24,056 bases of DNA from an uncultured Methanosarcinales archaeon (GCA_964647565.1 CAZYIM010000038.1:1-24056); one strand, 5' to 3'; shown: positions 1-24,003, numbered from the stretch's first letter. The notes: generated from the sequence alone by a model not told the origin. Program-made: numbers and translations.

Positions 1-493
1 GGGGTCCGCCACTAATATGTTTTTCCAAATACCAAGAAGAAGGTTTACTAAGCCGTCTCAAACTATATACTCCCACTGAATTCGGTTTAATCTTAGATTT
101 CAGACCTGTCAACACAGGGTTAAACCTTTCTACAAATGCACATCCAATATTCAACTTCGACTTACAAGCATGATTCTCCATACGATATGCGTCATCAAGT
201 GAACGGGTCAAAGGCTTTTCAATCAAAAAATTTTTTGTCTGGTCCTTGTATTGTAAGAACATAGAATAATGCGCTGATGTAGGGACACAAATACTGATAA
301 CATCATAATTCCTATTATTATCGTCCCACTTGAAGAATTCCATCTTTGACAATGCTGACTCTTCAGATTTACCCTCTTGCTTAATCACAGGATCAATAAC
401 ATCAATCTTTGAGACCCTGTCATCAAGTGCATACATCTCAGCATGGGTTTTACCCATCAATCCGTATCCAACCACACATACTTTCAGATTCAT
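1..493 (-). CDS. Gfo/Idh/MocA family NAD(P)-dependent oxidoreductase, truncated by the window edge (not in ORF track)
   Basis: Manual translation from ATG at 493: MNLKVCVVGYGLMGKTHA...YDVISICVPTSAH...LIEKPL...CAFVERFNP...WYLEKHISGGP. It has the Rossmann GxGxxG, EKP, ERFNP and W..SGG motifs, an upstream AGGTGA SD and no stop before base 1. Confidence 0.92.
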   Translation of the reverse strand, partial: MNLKVCVVGYGLMGKTHAEMYALDDRVSKIDVIDPVIKQEGKSEESALSKMEFFKWDDNNRNYDVISICVPTSAHYSMFLQYKDQTKNFLIEKPLTRSLDDAYRMENHACKSKLNIGCAFVERFNPVLTGLKSKIKPNSVGVYSLRRLSKPSSWYLEKHISGGP

Positions 494-539
494 TTTTTTC
501 ACCTTTGAGCATACGAAAAGGTGCCAACAACCTTGTTGC

Positions 540-1424
540 TCAGCACCTGCATAAGTGGACTTTGTCGCCTTCCTTCAAAACATGCTGCATATCCACTTTC
601 TGACCTGCATGTTTCACACTTTCTCCCCACACCTTAGCATATTTGTATCCTGAGGATATCTGCTTGGCCATATCACAGACTCTAGATTTATTCTTTTCAA
701 GTATAAAAGGTTCAGAATTTTTATCTTCCTGAGAATATACTCTGATGATACCCAGACTATTATAGAACGCATCTTTTACATCTTGAATCTCATCTGCATG
801 TACAAAAGGTATGCCTATGTCAAACAGCTCCATATCTCTGTATATTACAAAAGAAGGCAATCCCTCAACGTTCTTATCCTGATAAGAAGCAATAGGAATA
901 TTAGCATTTGTCAATTCATCCAGGACAACCTCAAGATCTTCTTCACTTCGAATCATAATGCTTGCGCTTCTAGATCTCTTGATCAGCTCATATTTCTGAC
1001 CGTTGGTTTGATAGTCACCAGAAAAAATAGGAGGCAGCTCAACCAACTGGATTGAGACATCCTGGTATTGCATCATGCCCAACTCCGGCTTGAATGTACT
1101 ATAGGGATAATCCTCAACAACTGCTTCGGCATCAGAAAACTTGTTCAACAAGGTACTCTTACCAGTGTTAGGTGTTCCAATAATCATACTGCGTAGTTTA
1201 TAGCTGGGAAACTCATAGAGGCTTTTAGAAGAAATCCTTTTGCTCGAATTTTTCTTTTTTTGCAGAGTTTCTAACATGTTACGAAATTTCTTCTTCTGAC
1301 TAGACAAGCCCGGAAATTTAGGATTTAGCAATAGCAGTTCCTGTATTATCCTTTCTTTCTCACTCTCACTAGACGTAGGATCCAGTTTCTTCAGCAGGTT
1401 CCTAAATTCAACATTATCTGTCAT
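540..1424 (-). CDS. DRG/Obg-family GTPase-like protein with C-terminal TGS domain; G3/G4 degenerate
   Basis: G1 GTPNTGKS, G2 YPYST, G3 position ELPP, and TGS-type YAKVWGESVKHAGQKVDMQHVLKEGDKV. Start moved to ATG 1424 because AGGTGA lies 5 nt upstream. Confidence 0.88.
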   Translation of the reverse strand: MTDNVEFRNLLKKLDPTSSESEKERIIQELLLLNPKFPGLSSQKKKFRNMLETLQKKKNSSKRISSKSLYEFPSYKLRSMIIGTPNTGKSTLLNKFSDAEAVVEDYPYSTFKPELGMMQYQDVSIQLVELPPIFSGDYQTNGQKYELIKRSRSASIMIRSEEDLEVVLDELTNANIPIASYQDKNVEGLPSFVIYRDMELFDIGIPFVHADEIQDVKDAFYNSLGIIRVYSQEDKNSEPFILEKNKSRVCDMAKQISSGYKYAKVWGESVKHAGQKVDMQHVLKEGDKVHLCRC

Positions 1425-1429
1425 TATTA

Positions 1430-2602
1430 TCACCTAAGATATTGTTTTTCAACTTTTAATACTGCTTCGCATATCTGATCAAGATCCTGTCTTTCCAACA
1501 CAGGATCAGTGAACAACGTCATTATCCTCTGAGTTACAGACTCAGTTATAGGACAACGAACATCTTTATTGAAGCCATTAAACACTTTAGCCTTATACAA
1601 GGGAGATGGATAACAGATGTCCATGGGCACATTCTCAGCCTGAACAGCTTTGACAAATTTGTCTCTAATATTCTCAGAACCCTTTGGTAAAAGAACAGGA
1701 TAGTTGTGAAAGACATGATCAACTCCAAAGCTAGTTTCTGGCAGCACGAGTTTTGAATGTTTAAGCATAGCTGTATAATAAGCTGCATTCTCCTTTCGCG
1801 CAGTATTAAAGCCTTCTAGTTTTGAAAATTGTCCCAGGCCAACTGCTGCCTGCATCTCAGTCATTGCATAGTTGAATCCTAACTCATCATAGATATACCA
1901 AGTATCAGGATTCTTTGGGCTACCATGTTCTCGTTTTAATCTTGCTTTATGATCCAACCAATCATGATTGGTAACAACCATACCCCCTTCACCACAGGTC
2001 ATGTTCTTGGTCTGGAAAAAGCTGAAGCATCCACAATCACCTAGGCTGCCAGCAGGTTGATCTTTATACATAGCTCCCTGAGCTTGTGCAGCGTCCTCAA
2101 TAACAAAAATACTGTAAGCATTTTTTGAAATATCATTGATATAATCCATATCTGCAACATGACCAAAGATATGGACTGGAATAACTGCTCTAGAATTTTT
2201 AGTAATTTTACTGAACAAGTCTTCAGGGGACATACAATATGTGTCAGGATCAATATCAACGAAAACAGGTTTGGCACCCTGTTGAAGCACTACTGAAGCA
2301 GTTGACACAAAAGTTAATGCAGGAACAAGTACCTCATCACCAGGACCTATGCCAAGAGCTGAGACAGCTGTATGCAAGGCAGTTGTGCCAGAGGTTGTTG
2401 CAATGCCATATTGAACTCCGCAGTTCGCTGCAAAGGTTTTTTCAAATTCAGTCACTTTTGGCCCGCCTCTAAAGACGGAAAGTCTGCCAGAATCAAGCAC
2501 TTCGAGCACTTGCTTTCTCTCCTCATATCCAATCGTGTTTTTCCACTCAAAGGATTTGTCCCTAACAGGAGTCCCTCCATCTATTGCTAGTTTATAATTC
2601 AT
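1430..2602 (-). CDS. DegT/DnrJ/EryC1/StrS PLP-dependent sugar/cyclitol aminotransferase
   Basis: LAIDGGTPVR N-terminus, TSGTTALH, EDAAQA, and SFFQTKNMTCGEGG with the catalytic Lys. GGAGG SD; ATGA overlap with the upstream gene. Confidence 0.96.
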   Translation of the reverse strand: MNYKLAIDGGTPVRDKSFEWKNTIGYEERKQVLEVLDSGRLSVFRGGPKVTEFEKTFAANCGVQYGIATTSGTTALHTAVSALGIGPGDEVLVPALTFVSTASVVLQQGAKPVFVDIDPDTYCMSPEDLFSKITKNSRAVIPVHIFGHVADMDYINDISKNAYSIFVIEDAAQAQGAMYKDQPAGSLGDCGCFSFFQTKNMTCGEGGMVVTNHDWLDHKARLKREHGSPKNPDTWYIYDELGFNYAMTEMQAAVGLGQFSKLEGFNTARKENAAYYTAMLKHSKLVLPETSFGVDHVFHNYPVLLPKGSENIRDKFVKAVQAENVPMDICYPSPLYKAKVFNGFNKDVRCPITESVTQRIMTLFTDPVLERQDLDQICEAVLKVEKQYLR

Positions 2603-3498
2603 TTTTCAAACCTCCATATACGCTCTACTGGTCGATTATTACCAATCTCCCAAGCATAATCAGACAGTCTCTGCAAATATCTTTGATCGTATTGTGTCTT
2701 GTAGATAGCTGCTAAAGACACTTTGCGATCAATAAAACCGGAGATATCTATTAACTCAGAACTCATACCTTTTGTTTTATTGTTTAGCTGTAACTCCAGT
2801 TCTTTTTCTGAGAGCTCCTTGGTATAGGGCAAATCTTCGTAGAAATCAATGTCCCATCCCGTCTCAACCAGCTTCTTACCTATGTTATAGAGCATTACAT
2901 GATCAATTTGATTGCCAATAGATACTGGAAAGAAAATTTTGTCAGAATCTAATAAGGAAAAACAATTTAAAAGAGAGTTTTCAACATCTGTAAACGCAGG
3001 ATCTTCAGAAACATCTCTCACCTCAAAAGCATTTTCATATCCTCGTTCCAAAGCCTCAGGAAATCCCAGGAATTTAAGTTCTGCATCGACCAGTTTTGCA
3101 TAGAATTCCTCTTCAAGATTATTATAGAATGTGACCTCCCCAGCAGTATTGAGTAGTCCGTTAAGCATTACACTAGTAGGACAAGAACTAAACACATTGA
3201 GAATGGAAAACTGCTGATCGGACGATAATATGTAACCGCCTAAAGATAAGGCAGCATCATCTGAATGTGCAGCAACAATCACATTTCGTTTCTTAGATCT
3301 GATCTTTCTTGGAATGTCCTCTACAATAACAGAGTCATTCAGCAGCTTTGATAGAGAAACATCCTCATTTGGCTCTTTTTGCTGACATATGGCTTGTACA
3401 GCCTCAAGGCACTCTGACTCTAACTCAAGGTTCTGTCTATATAAAAAAGTCAGCCCTGCATCATTCAATTTATAGTGTGGTAATAGTTTGTATTTCAT
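2599..3498 (-). CDS. PIG-L/LmbE family N-deacetylase with an N-terminal extension of about 70 aa
   Basis: AHSDD metal motif, LGFPEALER, QIDH (HxDH variant), FYEDLPY, YKTQ, ERIW. Confidence 0.9.
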   Translation of the reverse strand: MKYKLLPHYKLNDAGLTFLYRQNLELESECLEAVQAICQQKEPNEDVSLSKLLNDSVIVEDIPRKIRSKKRNVIVAAHSDDAALSLGGYILSSDQQFSILNVFSSCPTSVMLNGLLNTAGEVTFYNNLEEEFYAKLVDAELKFLGFPEALERGYENAFEVRDVSEDPAFTDVENSLLNCFSLLDSDKIFFPVSIGNQIDHVMLYNIGKKLVETGWDIDFYEDLPYTKELSEKELELQLNNKTKGMSSELIDISGFIDRKVSLAAIYKTQYDQRYLQRLSDYAWEIGNNRPVERIWRFEK

Positions 3499-4217
3499 TT
3501 TGCAGCCCCTACAATTATATCAATGGCAACATCCATTGCTTTTTTTTGTGTTTTTCTTGATAATTTTTTACGCTCATCAATGATAGCAAGCACAGCCGCA
3601 GCCTTATAGCCTCTTGCCTGTGCATATGCAAACGTAGCAGCACATTCCATCTCTGTGACAACTGCGCCCTGTTTTACAGCTTCCTGCATCTTCTTTTCAA
3701 GGCGTTCATGTCCAGGAAATATATCCTTATGCTCCATATATAGCAGGTCTTTAGAATGCACTGTTCCTTGGACACAAGCGTAATTTCTTGTCTTTGAAGC
3801 TTCAAAAAGCTTACAGACCATTTCAGTATCAGGTTCTGGTTTTACACCTTCAGGAAGCATGTAACTAGATAGGATCTCATCTGAAACCACCTTGTTCGGA
3901 ATAAATAAATCGCCTGCTTGCACAATAGGATACATTATACCTGACGTGCCAACCCTAATAAAACTTCTCGAACCACTCTCTGCCATCTCATGCAAACCAA
4001 TAACCCAGGAAGGCCCTCCCATGCCAAGACCTGCAAAAGAAAAATCAACATTATCCTTTGAAGCATTTCCAACTATTAATCCTCTTTTATTCGCTAAGAC
4101 TGTATAATCATCCACAAGTTCAAATACCAATTTACATCTATCAGGATCACCAAATACAATTGCATCCTTATGCAAACTTCCTCGCCTGCATCCTAAGTGA
4201 TACATTACTTCATCCAT
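3495..4217 (-). CDS. Nucleoside phosphorylase (PNP/UDP family 1, uridine phosphorylase-like)
   Basis: YHL, GDPDR, GMGGPS, IRVGTSG, EMECAA. Start moved to ATG 4217 (AGGTGG SD upstream, 8-nt overlap with the GT4 stop). Confidence 0.92.
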   Translation of the reverse strand: MDEVMYHLGCRRGSLHKDAIVFGDPDRCKLVFELVDDYTVLANKRGLIVGNASKDNVDFSFAGLGMGGPSWVIGLHEMAESGSRSFIRVGTSGIMYPIVQAGDLFIPNKVVSDEILSSYMLPEGVKPEPDTEMVCKLFEASKTRNYACVQGTVHSKDLLYMEHKDIFPGHERLEKKMQEAVKQGAVVTEMECAATFAYAQARGYKAAAVLAIIDERKKLSRKTQKKAMDVAIDIIVGAAK

Positions 4218-5334
4218 TATCAACCACCTTCTGATAATAAGCATCATGCTCTTTGATTACCTTGTCAACTCTAAAATCCTGCACAAAATCAAGAGCATTC
4301 TTAATAACTTGTTTTTTCAAAATAGAGTTCTCTTTTATCTCTGAAATAGCATGTTCTAGAGCAGAAGAATCTCCAACTTCGAACAGTAATCCTGTCTGCC
4401 TATCGTTAATCACATCTGGCAATCCAGCTACATCTGAAGCAATAACAGGAACACCTGATGCCATAGCTTCAAGATTGACATATCCAACCGCTTCATATAA
4501 TGAAGGGCAAACTAGAACATCAGCAGCCTTATAGTACAAAGGAAGTTGAGTGGGTACTACTGGATCAAATGCAAATACATTACCCCCTAATTCAACTTCA
4601 GTCGTGTCTTGTCCTGAATTTGCTCTGACAGCAGGTACATAAGAAATCCCCTGTCCTTGTTTTTTGAAGTCTCCCATGACCATTAATTGCATAGCTTTCT
4701 TTTTTGAGAGATTATTATAAGCTTCTGCAAGAACTGAAAAACCCTTCAACACAGTGGGTCTTCCAAGAAAAAAGATAGTAAAACTGTCAGGAAGACCAAG
4801 CCTCTGTCTTGCTTCTTGCGGGGAAATATCAATATTAAAATGATCAACATCCACTGGCAGTTTAAGAAGTTCGGGCTTAGCGCCAAGATCCTCTAACTCT
4901 TTCTTATGGAATTTGCTGTACACCACCAGATTCTCTATTTTAGGATAATGTTTGGATTCAAAATAAGAGAAGAATGATTGAGCTTGATGTAATTCTTTAA
5001 TTTCAGCATCATCTTGAGTGTCATTAGCAGCAATCTCAAACTCTTTTGAGAACATGCAATGTGAAGAGCAGACAGTATGACCTCCCTGCTGCTGTGCAAA
5101 GTACCCGGGCAATAAGAAATGGCTGTGCACAAGATCCAATCCATGTATTTTCTTGGAGCTAAACTTGAAATCATAATAAGTCTTCAGGAAGACAGGATCA
5201 TCATTAGGAAAAAGAACAGAGTCCTTTGCATAAGTCACGTAATGCTTATGTTCAGAATTTTTCTGAAGTAGATCAACATATGTTTCAGAGCCGCCATATT
5301 TCTTCTGCATGTACTGTATGTGTCTTATTTTCAT
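4210..5334 (-). CDS. GT4-family (GT-B) retaining glycosyltransferase
   Basis: YGGSE, VHSH, FLGRPTVLKG, ADVLVCPSLYEAVGYVNLEAMASGVPVI (EX7E), TGLLF. Confidence 0.95.
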   Translation of the reverse strand: MKIRHIQYMQKKYGGSETYVDLLQKNSEHKHYVTYAKDSVLFPNDDPVFLKTYYDFKFSSKKIHGLDLVHSHFLLPGYFAQQQGGHTVCSSHCMFSKEFEIAANDTQDDAEIKELHQAQSFFSYFESKHYPKIENLVVYSKFHKKELEDLGAKPELLKLPVDVDHFNIDISPQEARQRLGLPDSFTIFFLGRPTVLKGFSVLAEAYNNLSKKKAMQLMVMGDFKKQGQGISYVPAVRANSGQDTTEVELGGNVFAFDPVVPTQLPLYYKAADVLVCPSLYEAVGYVNLEAMASGVPVIASDVAGLPDVINDRQTGLLFEVGDSSALEHAISEIKENSILKKQVIKNALDFVQDFRVDKVIKEHDAYYQKVVDNG

Positions 5335-6347
5335 TTTTTGAACCTACTCAAGAATTTTTTTGCTTTTTGGTTGTTAAGAGACGGAACTTTAGTTATCTCA
5401 TCCAAAGATATCCAGCCATTAAGATACTGACTGATCACCTCGTAATGGTTGAAACAATCAATACATTCTTTCCAGACGCCTTTTTTTCTAAATGGAAACT
5501 CTCTTAGCTTGGATACTGAATCTTTGTATATGTTGCCAAGATTTTCATCAGGACCACAGGGGCACAATTTTATATCTCCCTCAGGGTCCACTCCTACATT
5601 GACAAGCGGCACATTACAAGCAGTTCTTCTTTGTCCAGTCTGGAGAAAAGTTACTAGCTCCTCAAGATATGCTTTTGGGGGAAGATGGTTGGCAAATCTT
5701 TTGATGTTTTCATTCATTGAGTTTCCAAATTCCTCGATTTGTTCATCAGTTGGGGATAAATCCTGGTTATCCTTACCAGGAAAAGGTCTGACCGCAAAAG
5801 GAAAAATCATGACATTACCATAATGATACTGGCTCATATACTCCAAGAAGTCAGGAAATCCTTCAATATTATGTTTGGTCAATACAGAGTTTATCTCAAC
5901 AGGCATATCAAATTTAATTGAATAATCTATGTTAGTCAGTACTTTATCTAGTAATTTTTCAGAGTAGCCTCTTGCACCATTGAGAGCAAGCGTATGACCA
6001 TCTAAAGAGTAACAAATACTAAGCCCATCATATTCAGCCAACCCAGATAATGTAGGTCCATTAAGCAGAGTACCATTGGTTATGATCTGCCAATTAGTAT
6101 TCGCAGCCAGGTTAAAAAGTTCTGGAAAACGATCATAAAGGGTGATCTCCCCGTATCCAGATATCTTGATTACGGCAGGATTAAGATGCTCCAGAGTTCT
6201 CTTTAGACCTGTATTAATTAAGATAAAATGTTCATTAAGGGAAGTTTTGTCAGCTATAATAGGTTTATCACGACAATATCCACAAGCTAGGTTGCAGTAC
6301 TCTGTGATACTATAATCCAAGATAAGAGCTTCACCTTTCTTAGGCAT
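5331..6347 (-). CDS. Radical SAM enzyme with SPASM/Twitch auxiliary-cluster domain
   Basis: ITEYCNLACGYC (CxxxCxxC), SGYGE, ITNG, SLDG, and C-terminal C..VDPEGDIKLCPC..LGNI..CIDC. Confidence 0.94.
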   Translation of the reverse strand: MPKKGEALILDYSITEYCNLACGYCRDKPIIADKTSLNEHFILINTGLKRTLEHLNPAVIKISGYGEITLYDRFPELFNLAANTNWQIITNGTLLNGPTLSGLAEYDGLSICYSLDGHTLALNGARGYSEKLLDKVLTNIDYSIKFDMPVEINSVLTKHNIEGFPDFLEYMSQYHYGNVMIFPFAVRPFPGKDNQDLSPTDEQIEEFGNSMNENIKRFANHLPPKAYLEELVTFLQTGQRRTACNVPLVNVGVDPEGDIKLCPCGPDENLGNIYKDSVSKLREFPFRKKGVWKECIDCFNHYEVISQYLNGWISLDEITKVPSLNNQKAKKFLSRFKK

Positions 6348-6352
6348 ATTGT

Positions 6353-7633
6353 TTACCTCGTCCCCACTACCTTTTCAAAAATATTGATGAACTTTTGTGC
6401 AGCGTATGTAACATCATAACGCTCAGCCCTTTGCCGAACATATTTAGATTTTTCTTCATAGAAAGGTCTATCATCAAATAAACGTTGAATTTTCTGAACC
6501 AATTCTTCATTGCTACCAAATAAAAGACCACTCTCAGCACCCATTAGTTCAGGAAAACATGCGTAATTTGGGCAAAGGGTAGGTACATAACAGGCCATAG
6601 AATCCACTACACTCATGCTCCACAACGCAGAAGGTTTCATAGGTCCTATTGACAAATATGCATCTGCCACAGTCTTATAGTAATTATCCCGTTCTATTGA
6701 GTGTTGAACCTTGACAAAAGGAAGTTCAAGTATTTTCTTCTTGTTATTATCAACAGTTGGATCAAGTGCATCTCTTTCTTTTGACCTATTGGCGGTGGGA
6801 TTTGTCACAATTATCTCAAAGTCCTGCCTCACCCCATTATAGAAATCAGTCATAGCCTTAAAGAATTCATTAGGGCCATAATGGTTGTATAACCTATGGT
6901 TGAATAAAATGCGTTTTTTACCCCCCTGCTTAGAACCATGATCTTTTAAAGAGGAATCGACTTCATTTAACGATACAGGGGGAGGTATGGCTTTGAAATC
7001 TCCAGTTGTAGATGAAATCAATTTTTGAGCATTTCCAAGCAAGAGGTCTATACCGAAATTGCTACATATTATATTATAATCACTAACATAAATAGCTTCT
7101 ATCTGACGCATGAAAATTGGCAACCCAAGTCCCTTATTATCTAAGGTGTTGTCAAACCTTAAGCTGGATGGATATCGGGTCTCTTCAAGATTCACAAGCA
7201 TGTCATAGTCCAGTCCAATTCCATTCACACTAAAATGAAAGTGAGAAGGTTCAACAGGAAGATAATGAAAGTATGAGACTATTGGAATCGTTTTTTCTGG
7301 TAATAAGGTAGCTTCAAGCGCCCTGAAGTTTGATGCCTGCTCTGACTGGTTGACATAGATCATGTCAATGTCAGCTATTATCGGTTTAATCTTTGATTCT
7401 AGCTCCTTCCAGGGAAAATTAAACCTAGCTTCAAACTTGTTATGGCCGTAGTCTAACTCAAGGTTATGTATTCGATCATCTATTTTAGGCGTACCTGGGG
7501 GTGATATATAATAAAAATTCCAATCAGGCCTCTGTTTAAGTATTTCCCCCATCAGCAACTTCTGGAACACATAGCCACTGTCAGATTCCAGGTTGCTGAG
7601 ATTACTGACATTCAGCAGGCTCAATATGTTCAT
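6353..7633 (-). CDS. Atypical GT-B glycosyltransferase, first gene of the operon
   Basis: YFHY, ILFNHR, RQDF, and WSMSVVDSMACYVPTLCPNYACFPEL (S/D variant of the EX7E region). Start moved to ATG 7633 because the TATA box lies inside the track's longer GTG-start ORF. Confidence 0.85.
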   Translation of the reverse strand: MNILSLLNVSNLSNLESDSGYVFQKLLMGEILKQRPDWNFYYISPPGTPKIDDRIHNLELDYGHNKFEARFNFPWKELESKIKPIIADIDMIYVNQSEQASNFRALEATLLPEKTIPIVSYFHYLPVEPSHFHFSVNGIGLDYDMLVNLEETRYPSSLRFDNTLDNKGLGLPIFMRQIEAIYVSDYNIICSNFGIDLLLGNAQKLISSTTGDFKAIPPPVSLNEVDSSLKDHGSKQGGKKRILFNHRLYNHYGPNEFFKAMTDFYNGVRQDFEIIVTNPTANRSKERDALDPTVDNNKKKILELPFVKVQHSIERDNYYKTVADAYLSIGPMKPSALWSMSVVDSMACYVPTLCPNYACFPELMGAESGLLFGSNEELVQKIQRLFDDRPFYEEKSKYVRQRAERYDVTYAAQKFINIFEKVVGTR

Positions 7634-7655
7634 ATCGACGAAGAATACTATTAAA

Positions 7656-7663
7656 TTTATAAA
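7656..7663 (-). promoter_or_regulatory. Archaeal TATA box for the minus-strand operon
   Basis: TTTATAAA ending 23 nt before ATG 7633, with a purine-rich BRE-like sequence upstream; the same spacing recurs at other genes. Confidence 0.7.
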
Positions 7664-7722
7664 GATTGCCTTTTTAATCACTGAAAAGTCCTAACAAATT
7701 GGTGATTTCCTCGCCTGGCAAA

Positions 7723-16756: not shown

Positions 16757-17950
16757 ATGATAATAGGGGTTGTAGGTAAGGCCAACGTCGGAAAAAGCAC
16801 ATTCTTCAAGGCAGCTACACTTATGGAAGTAGAGATAGCCAACTATCCCTTCGCAACAATTAAACCCAACCATGGTATAGGCTTTGTCAAGATTGACTGT
16901 GCAGATAAACATTTCAATGTTCAATGCAATCCAAGGGTTGGTTTCTGTGTAAACCATAAAAGGTTTGTACCTGTTGACATGATTGATGTCGCAGGACTTG
17001 TGCCAGGAGCTCATGAAGGTAAGGGCATGGGTCTTGAGTTCTTGAATGACCTTAACCAGGCAGATGCCTTGATTCATGTAATAGATGTTTCGGGGGGCAC
17101 CAATGAAAAAGGCGAACCCGTAGATCCAGGAAGCTATGATCCTGCTGGAGACATCAAGTTTCTAGAGATTGAACTTGACCATTGGTATTTCAACTGCCTC
17201 AAAAAGGGATGGGAAAAGTTCGCCAGACAAGTACAGCAGGAGCACAGAGATATAGAAAAAGCCCTCCATAAACAGCTCGCAGGACTAGGCGCCACAGAAG
17301 AGCTTTTAGTCCTACTTATCAAAGACTTGAATCTGAATAAAGAGAAACCTACATCATGGACAGATGCAGATCTATTAAATTTTGCTTCTGCGCTTAGAAA
17401 GAAGACCAAACCCATGATAATAGCAGCTAACAAGATAGATGTTCCTGGTGCAAGTGAGAACCTAGAAAGACTAAGAAAAGAGTTTCCAGATCATATAATT
17501 ACAGCGTGTAGTGCAGAATCTGAACTTGCATTGAAAGAGGCTGCCAAGCATAACATGATAGATTATATTCCTGGAGATGCAGACTTCAAAATTTCAGGAG
17601 ATCTCAATGACAAACAGAGGAATGCCCTTAATTTTATTAGAGATAGTGTTCTCAAGAAATTCGACACCACTGGCGTACAAGATGTTCTGAATGATGCAGT
17701 ATTCAAGCTACTCAAATACATCGCCATATTCCCTGGAGGAATCAACAAGCTTGCAGACCAACATGGTAATGTACTTCCTGACTGCTTCCTGCTTCCGGAA
17801 AAATCAACTACCCTTGATTTTGCATTCAAGATCCATACAGATCTAGGAGAAAAATTCATCAGAGCAATAGATGTAAAGAGCAAGATGACTGTTGGAAAAG
17901 ATCATCTACTTAAAAATCTGGATGTAGTTGAAATAGTTGCAGATAAATAA
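16757..17950 (+). CDS. ychF: Archaeal YchF/Obg-family translation-associated NTPase with TGS domain
   Basis: GKANVGKST, YPFATI, DVAGLVPGAH, AANKID, IHTDLG. Confidence 0.95.
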   Translation: MIIGVVGKANVGKSTFFKAATLMEVEIANYPFATIKPNHGIGFVKIDCADKHFNVQCNPRVGFCVNHKRFVPVDMIDVAGLVPGAHEGKGMGLEFLNDLNQADALIHVIDVSGGTNEKGEPVDPGSYDPAGDIKFLEIELDHWYFNCLKKGWEKFARQVQQEHRDIEKALHKQLAGLGATEELLVLLIKDLNLNKEKPTSWTDADLLNFASALRKKTKPMIIAANKIDVPGASENLERLRKEFPDHIITACSAESELALKEAAKHNMIDYIPGDADFKISGDLNDKQRNALNFIRDSVLKKFDTTGVQDVLNDAVFKLLKYIAIFPGGINKLADQHGNVLPDCFLLPEKSTTLDFAFKIHTDLGEKFIRAIDVKSKMTVGKDHLLKNLDVVEIVADK

Positions 17951-17999: not shown

Positions 18000-18698
18000 T
18001 TAGGATTTCTTTTTCTTCTTAGAACTTTTCTTTTTCTTAGGTTTGGACTCTTTTTTCTCAGGAGACTCATCTTTTATCTCCTCCTCAGGCTCTAGCATTT
18101 CATCCACAGGCTTGACTTCCTCACCCTTCTTCTTGATTAACCCATATTTCTCTAGAATATCCTTATACATCAGGAAATCAGAAGATTCCTTGAATTCCTT
18201 GATTTTAGCGGGTGGCAGCTTCTCTATCCACTTATGTGTCACCTTAAGGACTTCCTTAAGATCTTGATCAACACCAGGACCATCCTCTCCATAGAAATGA
18301 ACATGTGTAGATTTGCCAAAAGATTGCTTAAGTTTCTTGAAGATGGATCGCTTTTTACCCTTTTTCTTCAGCTTAGGCTCTTCATCCTCATCAAAGACCT
18401 CTTCATTGGAAGTTTCAACCTCCACAGCATTGCCTTCATCGTCGACAAGAATCTCATCCTCTTCATCAGGTTCCTCTTTCTTATCATATTTCACACCAAG
18501 AAGCTTGTCCCAAAATGACTGCTTCTCGTATTCCACATGAACTTCACCCGTCTTCATGTCAGGCACCTTTTCCTCAGGAAACTTCATATTCAAAGCAAAA
18601 GGTTTTTTCTTTTCAGCTGTTGGACCGAGTTTCTTTTTTCTCGTGTCCAAATATTTTCCCATGTCGTCATTAAAAGTTCTTGGTTTAATATAGACCAC
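18000..18698 (-). CDS. Hypothetical Lys/Glu-rich protein
   Basis: 232-aa ORF with GTG start and TATA-like TTTATATA at about 18734-18741; acidic and basic low-complexity tracts plus one helical segment. Confidence 0.8.
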   Translation of the reverse strand: MVYIKPRTFNDDMGKYLDTRKKKLGPTAEKKKPFALNMKFPEEKVPDMKTGEVHVEYEKQSFWDKLLGVKYDKKEEPDEEDEILVDDEGNAVEVETSNEEVFDEDEEPKLKKKGKKRSIFKKLKQSFGKSTHVHFYGEDGPGVDQDLKEVLKVTHKWIEKLPPAKIKEFKESSDFLMYKDILEKYGLIKKKGEEVKPVDEMLEPEEEIKDESPEKKESKPKKKKSSKKKKKS

Positions 18699-20300: not shown

Positions 20301-22667
20301 CTATTTTTTCTTCTTGGCTTGAGCTTCTCTTGCCCTCTGTGCTTCTTCATATTTACCGTTCTTTCTTGCAAGTTTCCAAACCAATAAAACAATCTCGTAC
20401 AAGATTAATAACAACAGAACGATATTGGCATACCAACAGTAGAAATCAAATTTTTGAAAGACTGTTCGCTCAGGCAGATTCGTCACCTTAAGTAGTATAG
20501 GCACCCCATAAGTCTTTGCACCATATGAGTCCACAGCAGCAATAATTAGTTCCTGTTCGCCAAAATAATCCCTTTCTGGTGTCAGTAACAAACTATCTCC
20601 TTTAATCTCTGCTCTGATCTTATGCAGAGGAATCATCTCGTAGTTCAAGATGTCATTATCAGGATCATAGAAGTAATATGAGAGATTTATCTGGTAGGTA
20701 TGATCTTCAGGCCATTCGTGGTAAAGTCCGCTCTGATTCAATGGCAGCTCGCCATAAACCTGAGGAACTCCTTTGTAAAAAAAGATAATGTAAAATAAAA
20801 CCAATAACAATATGATGAATAGAACTGCTACTGTCAATACCAGATATCTAAGGGACCTGCCTTTTACAGGAGGTATAAGCATCAATATTATCAATAAAAA
20901 TAGGAAAATTATGCCTAAGATGCAAAATGTCAATCTACAATTGGTGCCTTTTATAAATTTCCATGCTTTCTCACAGAAATTATAATCCCTTAGGGTGACC
21001 TCAACAATGTTGCTAAAGCTCATATCCTTATCTGAATCAACAAAGATATCTAGATTATAAATTCCTGTTTCTGTTCCATCTTCAATATTAAACAGAACAG
21101 GTATGGTCTTAGTCCAACCAGGTTCAAGGTAGAACAGGGTATATTCATCATCTATGGTCATCCATTCTTGAGTAACATAAGACAGACTATAGGTAGCTGC
21201 CTGCTTACCAGTATTCTTAATCTTGATATACCTTTCTGATGTGCCAAAGGTCACTGTCATCTTCTGCGTGTCAAAGTTAACTGTGTGGCACTCTATGTCG
21301 CTAAATGTATGTAGCATAAATGATTTCGTAGTATTGATCATAGGCTTGCCATTAATTACTGCAAAGATAGAAACCTCATGATCTGTAGTCTGGTCATTTG
21401 GTACCTCTACTTCAAGGTTTACTGTTTGTCTCTCTTGGGCAAACATATCCAGGCTTAGCGAGGTTTCTCCATCTGGAAATGAGACTGAGGAAGGTGCTGT
21501 CAAAAACAGTTCTATAATTGATTCTGCGCGGGTATTACTGAAAACCTCAACCGGAACAGTATAATCACCTTCACAAAAATCATAGTACGCATATGGAACT
21601 GAAAGCTGAACATCATAGCAAGGCCAGATTTTCAACGGCATTTCGTATGTATAATCTGCAGCTCCAAGAAATGAAGTTATTCTAAATGGAAGTGTATAGT
21701 CAGCCCTAGAATTCCTCGGAGGTTTAATGACAACATAAAATGTCTTCTCTTCGTTTCCAGCTAGTTTCACATCCAATTGATCTTCAAACTCCACAAAATA
21801 AGGTTTAGTTTCGAGTAATATGGAAAAGTTGTTAGGTAAAGCTATATTGTTCTTCAGAGTAATTGGAACTATCTGCTCGTCAAGTTCACAGACAGCCAGA
21901 TTATCCTCAAATAAGACTTCAAAACTATAGTTTTTCTTTATTGTGAGATCATGATAAACTCTTGCTTCAAGCTGATTCTTATTCGCCTTGACAACAAAAG
22001 GAATGGAAAAGTCCCCATAAAGATTACAGGGTATGGTTAAATCGATCTTAACGTTGGCTGTTTCATTTGGCCGAATAAAGATGTTATCTGCTGAAATGCG
22101 GGCATATTCTGCATATTGAGGCATCTCTACTGTATATCTCTCAATAAAATTGCCTGTATTTTGGATAAATAGATCATAAGTAATGGGCGTACATGGCTGT
22201 AATGTCTCATTTAAGGGTGATGATGCAGTCAGCCCTAAAAAAGTATTTTGACAGTGTTTAAGCTTAATAGACTTGCGTATTGTTTGTTCTTTTCCATCAC
22301 TAAGGCTCCTTAGTTTGATTTTCAGGGTATAACTGTCAGGAGGAGAATAAATAAATTCGTCAGGGCATAAGGGACTCACAAAAATAGGGATATCCTCACT
22401 TTGCCCAGGCAGCAACTCCAGACCTGTCTCTGCAAGAACAACAAAATCGAGATTGTCAGAAAACTGGAAAAAATCAGGCCTATTGCCTGTGTTAGTAACA
22501 CGGATATGATCTATGGCTGTTGTACAGCGACAGAGAGTTATATCCTTATCATTGTATTCTGCTAGAAAGTCTGCAAATACAAAGTTAGATAGAACTATTA
22601 TAAGAAAAATAAGCAAACATGCTTTCAAACTGGTCTTCTTCATTGTAAGACAAGCCCATTTTTTCAT
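20301..22667 (-). CDS. Large membrane-anchored surface protein with tandem Ig-like domains
   Basis: Signal peptide, recurring NTG/L.PG beta-sandwich repeats with paired Cys, two internal TMs, a cadherin-like FYDPDNDIL domain and a C-terminal TM. Start may be 22643. Confidence 0.85.
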   Translation of the reverse strand: MKKWACLTMKKTSLKACLLIFLIIVLSNFVFADFLAEYNDKDITLCRCTTAIDHIRVTNTGNRPDFFQFSDNLDFVVLAETGLELLPGQSEDIPIFVSPLCPDEFIYSPPDSYTLKIKLRSLSDGKEQTIRKSIKLKHCQNTFLGLTASSPLNETLQPCTPITYDLFIQNTGNFIERYTVEMPQYAEYARISADNIFIRPNETANVKIDLTIPCNLYGDFSIPFVVKANKNQLEARVYHDLTIKKNYSFEVLFEDNLAVCELDEQIVPITLKNNIALPNNFSILLETKPYFVEFEDQLDVKLAGNEEKTFYVVIKPPRNSRADYTLPFRITSFLGAADYTYEMPLKIWPCYDVQLSVPYAYYDFCEGDYTVPVEVFSNTRAESIIELFLTAPSSVSFPDGETSLSLDMFAQERQTVNLEVEVPNDQTTDHEVSIFAVINGKPMINTTKSFMLHTFSDIECHTVNFDTQKMTVTFGTSERYIKIKNTGKQAATYSLSYVTQEWMTIDDEYTLFYLEPGWTKTIPVLFNIEDGTETGIYNLDIFVDSDKDMSFSNIVEVTLRDYNFCEKAWKFIKGTNCRLTFCILGIIFLFLLIILMLIPPVKGRSLRYLVLTVAVLFIILLLVLFYIIFFYKGVPQVYGELPLNQSGLYHEWPEDHTYQINLSYYFYDPDNDILNYEMIPLHKIRAEIKGDSLLLTPERDYFGEQELIIAAVDSYGAKTYGVPILLKVTNLPERTVFQKFDFYCWYANIVLLLLILYEIVLLVWKLARKNGKYEEAQRAREAQAKKKK

Positions 22668-22670
22668 AAT

Positions 22671-22699
22671 AAAAAATTAAAAAAAAAGAAAAAAAAGGA
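22671..22699 (-). terminator. Oligo-U tract after the 22708 gene (putative terminator)
   Basis: Long T runs on the minus strand immediately after the stop codon. Confidence 0.45.
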
Positions 22700-22707
22700 G
22701 AACCTAT

Positions 22708-24003
22708 TTAGTAATAGGTCTGCTCTTCTTCGTCGTCTTCCCTATTGCCTTTAAGCTTGTTAAATCCAATTATCAAGCCAAGGATTATCAGGATAACGAC
22801 CAAGACAATCAGAGCAATCTCCAAAGCTTTCCTAAGACCTGTGCTACTACCTGCAACTGCAGATCCGCTGACAACATTTGCTGTCAATGCGACATCGGTG
22901 CTCTTGGTGTCTGATTCAACATTCACCTTGAAGACTCTCTGGCCTTCAGGAGCATCGTTGTTTGCAGTTACGTAGACATAAACAGTCTCAGTTGTTCCTG
23001 CCTTAACCATCACAAGTGAGGAAGGATCTAGCTTTGCTGTTCCCCAACTAGCAACACCTGAAACAGAGACCACATAGGTCTTTGAGTACTTTCCTGTGTT
23101 GGTAATCATTATTGGGAATACTGCTCCACTACCGCCCTTCACAACATCCTGCATACCAGGTGATGTAATGGTAGGAGTCTCTGCTTTTTCAACGTTGCAG
23201 GGATCAGGCTCTTCAAGTGGACTGCAAGTCTCACCTTCAACAACTACGATTTCCACAGTCTCTGTGGTTGATTCGTATTCGTCGAACTCGACTTCTACTT
23301 CCACTGTGTAGGTGCCTGCTTCTGCGCAGTCAGGTATCCTAATAAGAAGCTTCTCAAAAGTTTCTGACTCATCAGGGTCCAATTCATCAATATACTCTGT
23401 GTCGGTAACTCCCAACTCAGGAACTGCAATTGTAACCTTGATGTCATCAAGCTCATCGTCTCCAATGTTCTTGACCTTTACCATTGCGGTAAATGCTCTT
23501 CCAGCCATAACTTCGTTTGATGGGTTAATTGATACATCCTTAATCATGATTGCATCTTCCTCATCAACACCAATGATGTGAAGCTCATAAACGTTCTCGT
23601 ATGATGTTCCGTCTTCGTCTCCAACTGTCACTCTTAACTTTGCGTATTTCTTATCCATCTTTGTTGGAATTTGCAAGCTAAGCGTTTTATATGTTGTATC
23701 ATTCTCAGCAAGATCAAATGTTCTTGTAACATCTGAAACCATATCGCCTTCGTAGTGTGCGTATCTGTATCCAAAGATCTCTGCTCTAATCTGCACATCT
23801 TCTACATCAGCTAAAGCCTTGACTTTCATTTTCAAATCAAGTTCTTCGCCTCTCTGTACTTCGAGGTTATCTGAATGGCCTGATGCCAAACTTACTTTTT
23901 CGCCGTTAACCCTTAAAAATTCAACATTAAGGTTAACTGCGCTAACCATGCCGACCATCAATATTGTCAGCAAAAATATTAACACAACTTTTCCGATATT
24001 CAT
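22708..24003 (-). CDS. Acidic S-layer-like/CARDB Ig-domain surface protein with C-terminal TM anchor
   Basis: Signal peptide ending VSA, VKNIG and ITNTG Ig-type motifs, and a TM followed by an acidic tail EEEQTYY. Confidence 0.85.
   Translation of the reverse strand: MNIGKVVLIFLLTILMVGMVSAVNLNVEFLRVNGEKVSLASGHSDNLEVQRGEELDLKMKVKALADVEDVQIRAEIFGYRYAHYEGDMVSDVTRTFDLAENDTTYKTLSLQIPTKMDKKYAKLRVTVGDEDGTSYENVYELHIIGVDEEDAIMIKDVSINPSNEVMAGRAFTAMVKVKNIGDDELDDIKVTIAVPELGVTDTEYIDELDPDESETFEKLLIRIPDCAEAGTYTVEVEVEFDEYESTTETVEIVVVEGETCSPLEEPDPCNVEKAETPTITSPGMQDVVKGGSGAVFPIMITNTGKYSKTYVVSVSGVASWGTAKLDPSSLVMVKAGTTETVYVYVTANNDAPEGQRVFKVNVESDTKSTDVALTANVVSGSAVAGSSTGLRKALEIALIVLVVILIILGLIIGFNKLKGNREDDEEEQTYY

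Follow-up and report, generated by a model that had tools for sequence, protein, structure and literature searches.

A shortened DRG-like protein with altered G3 and G4 motifs encoded in a sugar-enzyme operon of an uncultured Methanosarcinales archaeon

As described in the available text of PMC8629797, DRG proteins are ribosome-associated and hydrolyze GTP in a K+-stimulated manner; they are treated there as single-copy ribosome factors of archaea, with a fixed four-domain build, that are absent from bacteria. According to the same text, Rbg1 contacts the ribosome via its N-terminal helical domain, the core of its G domain and its TGS domain, with the S5D2L insert touching the A-site tRNA (PMC8629797). 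A literature search recovered no paper on DRG proteins in DPANN archaea, nor one that deals with TGS GTPases of biosynthetic clusters, and short forms of the DRGs are not mentioned in the accessible part of a 2026 preprint with an Obg/Rbg phylogeny. Here we analyze one such short form, encoded at 540..1424 on the minus strand of a 24,056-bp stretch of DNA from an uncultured Methanosarcinales archaeon (CAZYIM010000038.1 in GCA_964647565.1). This stretch, hereafter the window, is an entire contig (C38) of an assembly of 2.68 Mb in 86 contigs that is rated 86.9% complete.

The gene at 540-1424 is an accessory third DRG-family paralog and not the genome's DRG. It sits in an operon of sugar-modifying enzymes, and its product has lost the guanine-reading elements of the G domain but has kept the phosphate-binding core. 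With a probability of roughly 0.5, we favor the reading that it is an accessory factor with no guanine specificity in its binding of nucleoside triphosphates (NTPs), one that probably docks onto RNA or the ribosome and is expressed together with metabolite pathways. An earlier note on this DNA, made from the sequence alone, had called the gene a degenerate paralog embedded in a biosynthetic operon and had proposed a role in self-resistance or, alternatively, as an RNA-binding adaptor.

Architecture, motifs and family of the DRG-like protein

The open reading frame finder called this gene at 540..1433 on the minus strand, with a GTG start at 1433. The four closest homologs of the protein all start MT[DA]NVEF, and we therefore place the start at the ATG at 1424, the GTG at 1433 probably not being the true start. 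With this start, the gene (540..1424; stop codon TGA at 540-542) encodes 294 amino acids, the length that the earlier note had given; residue numbers from the AlphaFold2 model refer to a 297-aa form. Pfam recovers an MMR_HSR1 domain (E = 1.5e-13, residues 83-176) and a TGS domain (PF02824; E = 3.7e-07, 30.5 bits against a cut-off of 22.2) in the protein and no match to PF16897, the S5D2L extension; in an NCBIfam scan every model scored below its cut-off. The AlphaFold2 model, built from 98 sequences (mean predicted local distance difference test score 92.0, predicted template modeling score 0.75), comprises three N-terminal helices (6-17, 23-35 and 44-64), a G domain and, at the C-terminus, a domain rich in beta structure. 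Its top Foldseek matches are to Rbg1 (7rr5_R, E = 8e-16; 4a9a, E = 3e-14), with HflX and Nog1 ranking lower, and the top sequence matches in the PDB are likewise yeast Rbg2 (7nrc, E = 4e-16) and Rbg1 (4a9a, E = 4.5e-14).

The domains, all on the minus strand, can be delimited as follows. The N-terminal three-helix, helix-turn-helix (HTH)-like domain (1242..1424, residues ~1-61) is defined by the AlphaFold2 helices and a full-length Foldseek match to Rbg1. The G domain (798..1193), defined by MMR_HSR1 and the predicted strands and helices of residues 81-212, is trimmed and without the S5D2L insert, such that only ~35 residues separate the alpha4-like helix from the TGS linker in the model; the earlier note was thus right in regarding the mid-protein DRG insertion as missing. 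The C-terminal TGS domain (549..743) additionally matches the DRG1 TGS structure 2eki.

Within the G domain, the G1 P-loop (1152..1178), as read from the sequence and the alignments, is GTPNTGKST, with Asn in the fourth position, and the G2 region (1095..1109) reads YPYST, the Thr of which is kept in at least 90% of the 18 aligned rows of its clade (see below). Both are intact, as had been claimed. The G3 position is occupied by ELPP (1029..1040; GAG CTG CCT CCT) instead of DxxG, and the G4 position by YRDM (831..842; TAC AGA GAT ATG) instead of NKxD. In a 176-row alignment of the DRG family, anchored on the canonical DRG of the same genome, these tetrapeptides stand opposite DVPG and NKID respectively, which bears out the earlier reading of a changed G3 and a vanished NKxD. 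The YRDM site lies at the end of a predicted strand (192-198), a position that fits G4, and an SA-type G5 is not conserved among the closest relatives of the protein.

A search of the assembly revealed two other DRG-family genes. One, on contig C11, encodes a canonical DRG of 364 aa (GFPSVGKST, DVPG and NKID, with PF16897 at 105 bits); the other, on C32, encodes a short DRG-like protein of 308 aa with EVPG and NKAD and without the full insert. As C11, C32 and C38 match the bulk of the assembly in GC content and tetranucleotide composition, unlike a dozen small outlier contigs, the three genes are probably from one organism. The existence of a separate canonical DRG on C11 confirms the earlier description of the gene in the window as an extra paralog. 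Two further observations may be recorded here. Contigs C58, C65, C67, C71, C73, C75-C77, C79 and C81-C86 have a GC content of 0.40-0.50 and outlying tetranucleotides, against 0.34-0.42 for the bulk, and such small outliers may be bin contamination, or rRNA and mobile DNA. The window itself carries a second TGS-bearing Obg-family gene (16757-17950, plus strand), which codes for a GTPase related to Ygr210/YchF that ends in a TGS domain (NF007171, 551 bits).

We derived trees from the 176-row alignment with FastTree and from 76 rows with IQ-TREE (LG+C20, SH-aLRT support). The canonical DRGs, including that of C11, form one group (support 100) and all remaining rows a second (100 in both trees). 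In the 76-row IQ-TREE the query is nested in successive sets of 5 (99), 15 (100) and 20 (98) rows, with the FastTree being concordant, and the 20-row clade pairs as sister with the C32-type group, the two lying together in a clade of 28 rows (97). The branches leading to the clade are long (0.46, 0.59 and 0.52), which points to a changed constraint on it. In its members both the N and the K of G4 are exchanged, for [YH]R or [AGS]W, and an alignment of 18 clade rows has not a single conserved column in G4 and G5. In the same alignment N89, G91 and S93 never vary, and at least 90% of rows keep G86, K92, T94, T113 and P134, indicating that the phosphate-binding core is under selection.

Seen against the larger family, part of this erosion is not peculiar to the gene. 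The fourth G3 residue is P in 64, A in 62, S in 20 and G in only 30 of the 176 rows (146 non-Gly), and [NT]KxD is missing from the aligned columns in 83 of the 176, although alignment slips are possible for some of these. Strict NKxD is present in only ~9 of the 28 genome-encoded short forms that were read in a phylum sample of 401 genomes, many others having NKxx without the Asp. Hence the ELPP and the weakened G4 are largely family traits: the motif losses behind the label "degenerate" are real, but a non-Gly G3 does not set this gene apart. Many short DRG-like proteins of one family of small archaea (L022, L024, L025, L027, L031 and L033) have a G4 of the form NK[VIAL][IL]KNFK, with the N and K kept and the specificity Asp lost, which is, to judge by these sequences, a second and independent style of G4 erosion.

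Although some short DRG-like protein is found by the clade profile (E<=1e-30) in 118 of the 401 genomes of the phylum sample, the clade itself is rare. Its members occur there only in this genome (G000, 376 bits) and in G339 (350 bits), the best score outside the clade being 236 bits for a protein that reads INKKG, and in a sample of 401 genomes of the order the clade is again confined to these two. A scan of 1.84 billion cluster representatives yielded 2235 matches at E<=1e-3, 445 at E<=1e-10 and 5 at E<=1e-30, one of the five being a fragment of the query protein itself, and a word-based search of 5.8 billion proteins returned three relatives only (46-48% identity, 303-306 aa). We found no close orthologue in the 400 other genomes of the order, no match above 31% identity in 40 relatives searched with the single protein, and only long-form relatives (29-31% identity) in scans of genome and metagenome contigs. 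The clade profile gave nothing at E<=1e-60 in 215 genomes of a second archaeal phylum around G596, in a search run without a positive control, and no fused longer form (549-2000 aa) was seen among 7999 candidates, which is weak evidence. The counter-possibility raised in the earlier note, namely a sole, vertically inherited DRG with orthologues in relatives, is not supported, there being a canonical DRG on C11 and no close orthologue in the order sample. A check of four small genomes (G339, G143, G017 and G001) turned up no canonical DRG that carries an S5D2L insert, the sole match at the cut-off being a short form, so that short forms are probably the housekeeping DRG in these genomes.

The operon of the window and its comparanda

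The DRG-like gene is the seventh of eight co-directional genes that occupy the minus strand between 7681 and the end of the contig. From the first transcribed to the last, these encode a GT1-like glycosyltransferase (6353-7681); a radical S-adenosylmethionine (SAM) enzyme with a Cys-rich C-terminal part that matches only generic SPASM/twitch-type models (5331-6347); a GT4 glycosyltransferase, for which the nearest models, MshA and BshA, stay below their cut-offs (4210-5334); a uridine-phosphorylase-like protein (3495-4247) and a weakly matching PIG-L-like protein (2599-3498), both recognized in family-model scans; a DegT/DnrJ/EryC1-type sugar aminotransferase (1430..2602; Pfam E = 1.9e-112, nearest NCBIfam models PseC and LegC below cut-off); the DRG-like protein; and the N-terminal part of a Gfo/Idh/MocA oxidoreductase (2..502), cut by the contig end, with a likely ATG at 493 preceded by its own AAAGGTGA and with the archaeal UDP-GlcNAc 3-dehydrogenase as its nearest model. 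The C-terminal half of this last gene was not found on any other contig end. Enzyme pairs of the DegT and Gfo/Idh/MocA types are normally functional partners, as in the WbpE/WbpB-type pairs.

The earlier note had described the gene as embedded in the operon, and the junctions, which measure 5, -4, -38, -4, -4, 5 and 46 nt in order, agree with this; the DRG-like gene is 5 nt from DegT and 46 nt from the oxidoreductase gene. It had also placed the Shine-Dalgarno sequence over the DegT stop codon. This too is seen: on the minus strand, CTTAGGTGATAATAATG holds AGGTGA (1430..1435), the final three bases of which are the DegT stop TGA (1430-1432), and the ATG follows 5 nt further on. On the other side of the gene, after its stop codon, the minus strand at 503-539 carries an inverted repeat, CAACAA-GG-TTGTTG, followed by CACCTTTTC and then by the AAAGGTGA of the next gene; this repeat region may be a weak attenuator or pause site within the operon.

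Run-level contigs from four public DNA runs in two studies match positions 1-3000 with no listed difference, bridging the junction between DegT and the DRG-like gene in two of the four runs and that between the DRG-like gene and the oxidoreductase in the other two. The gene order is therefore no assembly artifact, although the best-matching runs may be the source samples of the window. The public runs that hold DNA of the window are marine or seawater metagenomes, with no RNA runs listed among them. The GC content stays at 0.36-0.42 along the window, with no composition island.

Homologs of the radical SAM enzyme are found in two other genomes (G310 and G259) of the 401 sampled, at ~29-34% identity. 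Their loci (L063 6481-12676 and L064 7131-13037) share a core of PIG-L, a glycosyltransferase of 430-440 aa, the radical SAM enzyme and GT4, supplemented in each by Fe-ADH_2 and HAD genes or else by a gene for an APH-type kinase; the window (2599-7681) adds the uridine-phosphorylase-like gene to this recurrent core, and the core glycosyltransferase measures 430-442 aa across the three loci, with 442 aa in the window. In the available texts on tunicaminyl-uracil clusters (PMC6965331, PMC6105854), TunB (337-340 aa), TunD (451-472 aa) and TunE make up the essential set. The core of the window, with its radical SAM enzyme, large glycosyltransferase and PIG-L-type deacetylase, and taken along with the uridine-handling enzyme, resembles TunB/TunD/TunE as they are presented in the accessible part of PMC6965331, the resemblance being one of composition and protein size only. 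Neither the radical SAM nor the PIG-L-like protein has a useful PDB relative by sequence, and the Atlas offers only generic clusters of radical SAM enzymes.

Taken together, the enzymes fit a glycoconjugate or nucleoside-sugar pathway, as far as their sequences allow an assignment, with a cell-envelope glycoconjugate being at least as likely a product as a tunicaminyl-uracil-like compound. The target of tunicamycin is the glycosyl-phosphate transferases and not the ribosome, and the ribosome is not the expected target with either type of product. Nothing marks the locus as the antibiotic cluster with a translation-targeting product that the earlier note had envisaged. An anti-phage defense role was considered and rejected: PADLOC has no match for the DRG-like protein, and the radical SAM enzyme gives weak matches to viperin models (~44 bits) but has a Cys-rich, SPASM-like tail. 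Elsewhere in the window, two large predicted surface proteins of 788 and 431 aa (20301-24003, minus strand), with an N-terminal signal-like segment, a C-terminal membrane anchor and a charged tail, could be acceptors of a glycan made by the operon, and 18000-18698 (minus strand) encodes a 232-aa protein of extreme Lys/Glu richness that ends in a poly-Lys/Ser tail.

Apart from the query, the context could be read for a single clade member, that of G339, an unpublished genome of 0.9 Mb that is the sole source for this second operon. This protein (306 aa, with EVPS and AAWSKF) heads an operon of seven genes (L049 2615-11366); its gene comes after one for a TrmB-type regulator and overlaps by 4 nt the first of six tightly overlapping enzyme genes. 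These specify a PaaK-like ligase of the adenylate-forming kind, a radical SAM enzyme that resembles RaSEA (194.6 bits with TIGR01210, for which the cut-off is 212), a pyridoxal-phosphate (PLP) enzyme similar to threonine synthase, a protein like agmatinase, an aminotransferase of class I/II and a diaminopimelate-decarboxylase-like protein. The operon may serve an amino-acid-derived or nucleoside-modification pathway. The operons of the window and of G339 are non-homologous and have no orthologous gene in common; a radical SAM gene is present in both, but the two enzymes are unrelated. As for the short DRG-like proteins with an intact G4, those of G143, G235 and our own C32 are encoded outside enzyme operons. 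G339 also has a separate, minimal DRG-like protein of 277 aa (L059 1942-2775; VEIPA, no clear NKxD) adjoining an aIF5B-like gene; this protein groups with the ordinary short forms in the tree.

Possible roles of the DRG-like protein

The reading that we favor starts from what the protein has kept and lost. Three modules remain, namely the helical domain at the N-terminus, a G-domain core that binds phosphate (the P-loop with its Asn, the G2 Thr and the acidic G3) and the TGS domain; gone are the S5D2L insert, the glycine of switch II and the two elements that read guanine (G4 NKxD and G5). Because the modules by which Rbg1 contacts the ribosome are kept, and S5D2L and the base-reading elements are gone, one would expect docking on the ribosome or another RNA, along with the binding of an NTP without guanine specificity and with a weak or altered coupling to hydrolysis. 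Translational coupling to the pathway enzymes further suggests that the protein would act only while the pathway is expressed. It would not be a catalytic part of one particular pathway, given that the two clade operons are unrelated and the distant core homologs do without the gene; as the two operons share no orthologous gene, no single operon enzyme commends itself as a reasoned partner.

Several points weigh against this reading. There is no DRG-like gene within 10 kb of the cores of G310 and G259, so the gene is not a constant part of this type of pathway; the earlier note had looked to co-occurrence of the gene with its operon, and absence from homologous clusters is one of several outcomes that it had itself counted against its proposal. 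Only two clade contexts are readable, one of them from an unpublished genome. Tight spacing is weak evidence of shared function, since small archaeal genomes pack unrelated genes closely. Moreover, with the erosion of G3 and G4 being so widespread in the larger family, the loss of motifs is in itself no mark of a new function.

In the strongest alternative, the protein would be an ordinary translation-linked DRG-like factor, a fast-evolving spare copy with the same general ribosome-associated role, the operon position of which is incidental in a compact genome. The frequency of eroded short DRG-like proteins in this archaeal group, the probable housekeeping role of short forms in the four small genomes without a detectable canonical DRG, and the homologous operon cores that lack the gene would all be expected under this explanation. 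It accounts less readily for a genome that already has two other DRG-family genes, for the long branches, and for the placement of the gene between DegT-type and Gfo/Idh/MocA-type genes with its translation signals coupled; the sole other readable clade member is operonic too, whereas three G4-intact relatives are not. We regard it as credible but, on balance, unlikely.

TGS domains are known to contact tRNA in RelA, and a further alternative, which the earlier note had also raised, is that of an adaptor for tRNA or another RNA. The RNA would be bound by the TGS and HTH domains, and the NTP-binding core would control its transfer to nucleoside-modifying or aminoacyl-tRNA-using enzymes of the operon. 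The clade-headed operon of G339, which encodes a RaSEA-like radical SAM enzyme and a PaaK-like ligase, offers a weak hint in this direction, RaSEA belonging to the archaeosine pathway of tRNA in the accessible text of PMC11298593, as does the uridine-phosphorylase-like gene among the sugar-modifying enzymes of the window. Against this, the score of the RaSEA-like protein is under the family cut-off, the radical SAM enzyme of the window is unrelated to it and has only generic SPASM/twitch-type matches, the operon of the window has neither an RNA gene nor an RNA-modification enzyme, and S5D2L, the tRNA-contacting part of Rbg1, is precisely what has been lost, all of which makes this explanation doubtful. 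A bolder version would have the whole clade specialize in RNA handling, as a subunit of operons for metabolites or for the modification of nucleosides. A TGS/HTH NTP switch would bring tRNA or the ribosome to the radical SAM and PLP or sugar enzymes, and both operons would build hypermodified RNA nucleosides or aminoacyl-tRNA-dependent products instead of free metabolites; we consider this version speculative and quite improbable.

Genes for ribosome-protection GTPases occur in some antibiotic clusters, and self-resistance, the proposal from which the analysis set out, would have the operon make a translation inhibitor and the DRG-like protein shield or rescue the ribosomes of its producer. 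An accessory gene that is co-transcribed with the pathway would suit such a role, and the HTH domain, G core and TGS domain that it has kept are the ribosome-contacting modules of Rbg1 in the available account (PMC8629797). Yet nothing in the operon identifies its product as an inhibitor of translation, and the composition of the core is like that of TunB/TunD/TunE in tunicamycin clusters, as far as the accessible text of PMC6965331 describes them. In addition, the gene is missing from the two homologous cores, the protein has no likeness above noise to HflX or EF-G-type factors (HflX, 22 bits against a cut-off of 217), and the visible part of the operon has no transporter or other resistance gene, such that we hold this proposal to be very unlikely. 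A HydF-like NTPase that matures or scaffolds the radical SAM enzyme, conceivable by analogy from the radical SAM gene in both clade operons, is almost certainly the wrong explanation, for the three Cys of the DRG-like protein are not conserved in its closest relatives, the HydF model is not matched, the two radical SAM enzymes are mutually unrelated, and the homologs of G310 and G259 function with no such gene close by.

Returning to the favored reading of an NTP-binding, pathway-linked accessory factor, the query belongs to a rare clade without guanine recognition but with a phosphate-binding core. The family around this clade, large and unnamed, consists of shortened DRG-like proteins that usually have another residue in place of the switch-II Gly. 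If the link with enzyme operons holds beyond the two contexts, a ribosome-factor scaffold would have been recruited as an accessory of metabolite pathways, and the clade would provide a natural system for the function of an Obg-type G domain without the G3 Gly, G4 and G5. If that link fails, the gene would be one further eroded DRG paralog in a small archaeon.

Comparison with known GTPase systems

HydF, a GTPase scaffold of the TRAFAC type, has its gene alongside those of the radical SAM maturases HydE and HydG. The query differs from it in that TIGR03918 is absent from the 20 families matched, there are no conserved Cys that could bind an Fe-S cluster, and a TGS domain stands in place of the dimerization and cluster domains. 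HflX/HflXr, marked by the HflX N-terminal domain, and the EF-G-like factors of the TetM type, which have the five-domain build of EF-G, are likewise distinct, with HflX models scoring 18-22 bits against cut-offs of 217-441 and EF-G domains being absent. YchF/OLA1 and the Ygr210-type relative encoded in the window share with the query the membership in the Obg family and the TGS domain, and in YchF/OLA1, which is characterized by an alpha-helical insert and a G4 of the NxxE type, an altered G4 can change base specificity. Nevertheless, TIGR00092 reaches only 23.2 bits against 279 and NF007171 25.3 against 387, and the query is without the YGR210-like G4 domain or a coiled-coil insert.

The closest described system is that of DRG/Rbg1/Rbg2, of the Obg family in the TRAFAC class, which has the same order of N-terminal helical, G and TGS domains. 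The query agrees with it in the HTH domain, an Obg-type G domain with G1 and the G2 Thr, and the TGS domain, and departs from it in the G3 DxxG, the G4 NKxD and the S5D2L insert, with no recognizable G5; in its P-loop an Asn takes the position of the Ser of canonical DRGs (GFPSVGKST in the C11 protein), and it is a third copy that is operonic with sugar enzymes. Its immediate kin are the members of the unnamed short DRG-like family (280-330 aa, MMR_HSR1 plus TGS), which is found in small-genome archaea and several bacterial phyla. The query is a member of this family by its length, the lack of S5D2L, the GxxNxGKS P-loop, a G3 of the form [DE]xP[PAS] and the TGS domain. Most members of the family, however, keep at least the NK of G4 and are encoded by stand-alone genes, whereas the clade of the query is rare, has [YH]R or [AGS]W at this position, and is operonic in the two contexts read.

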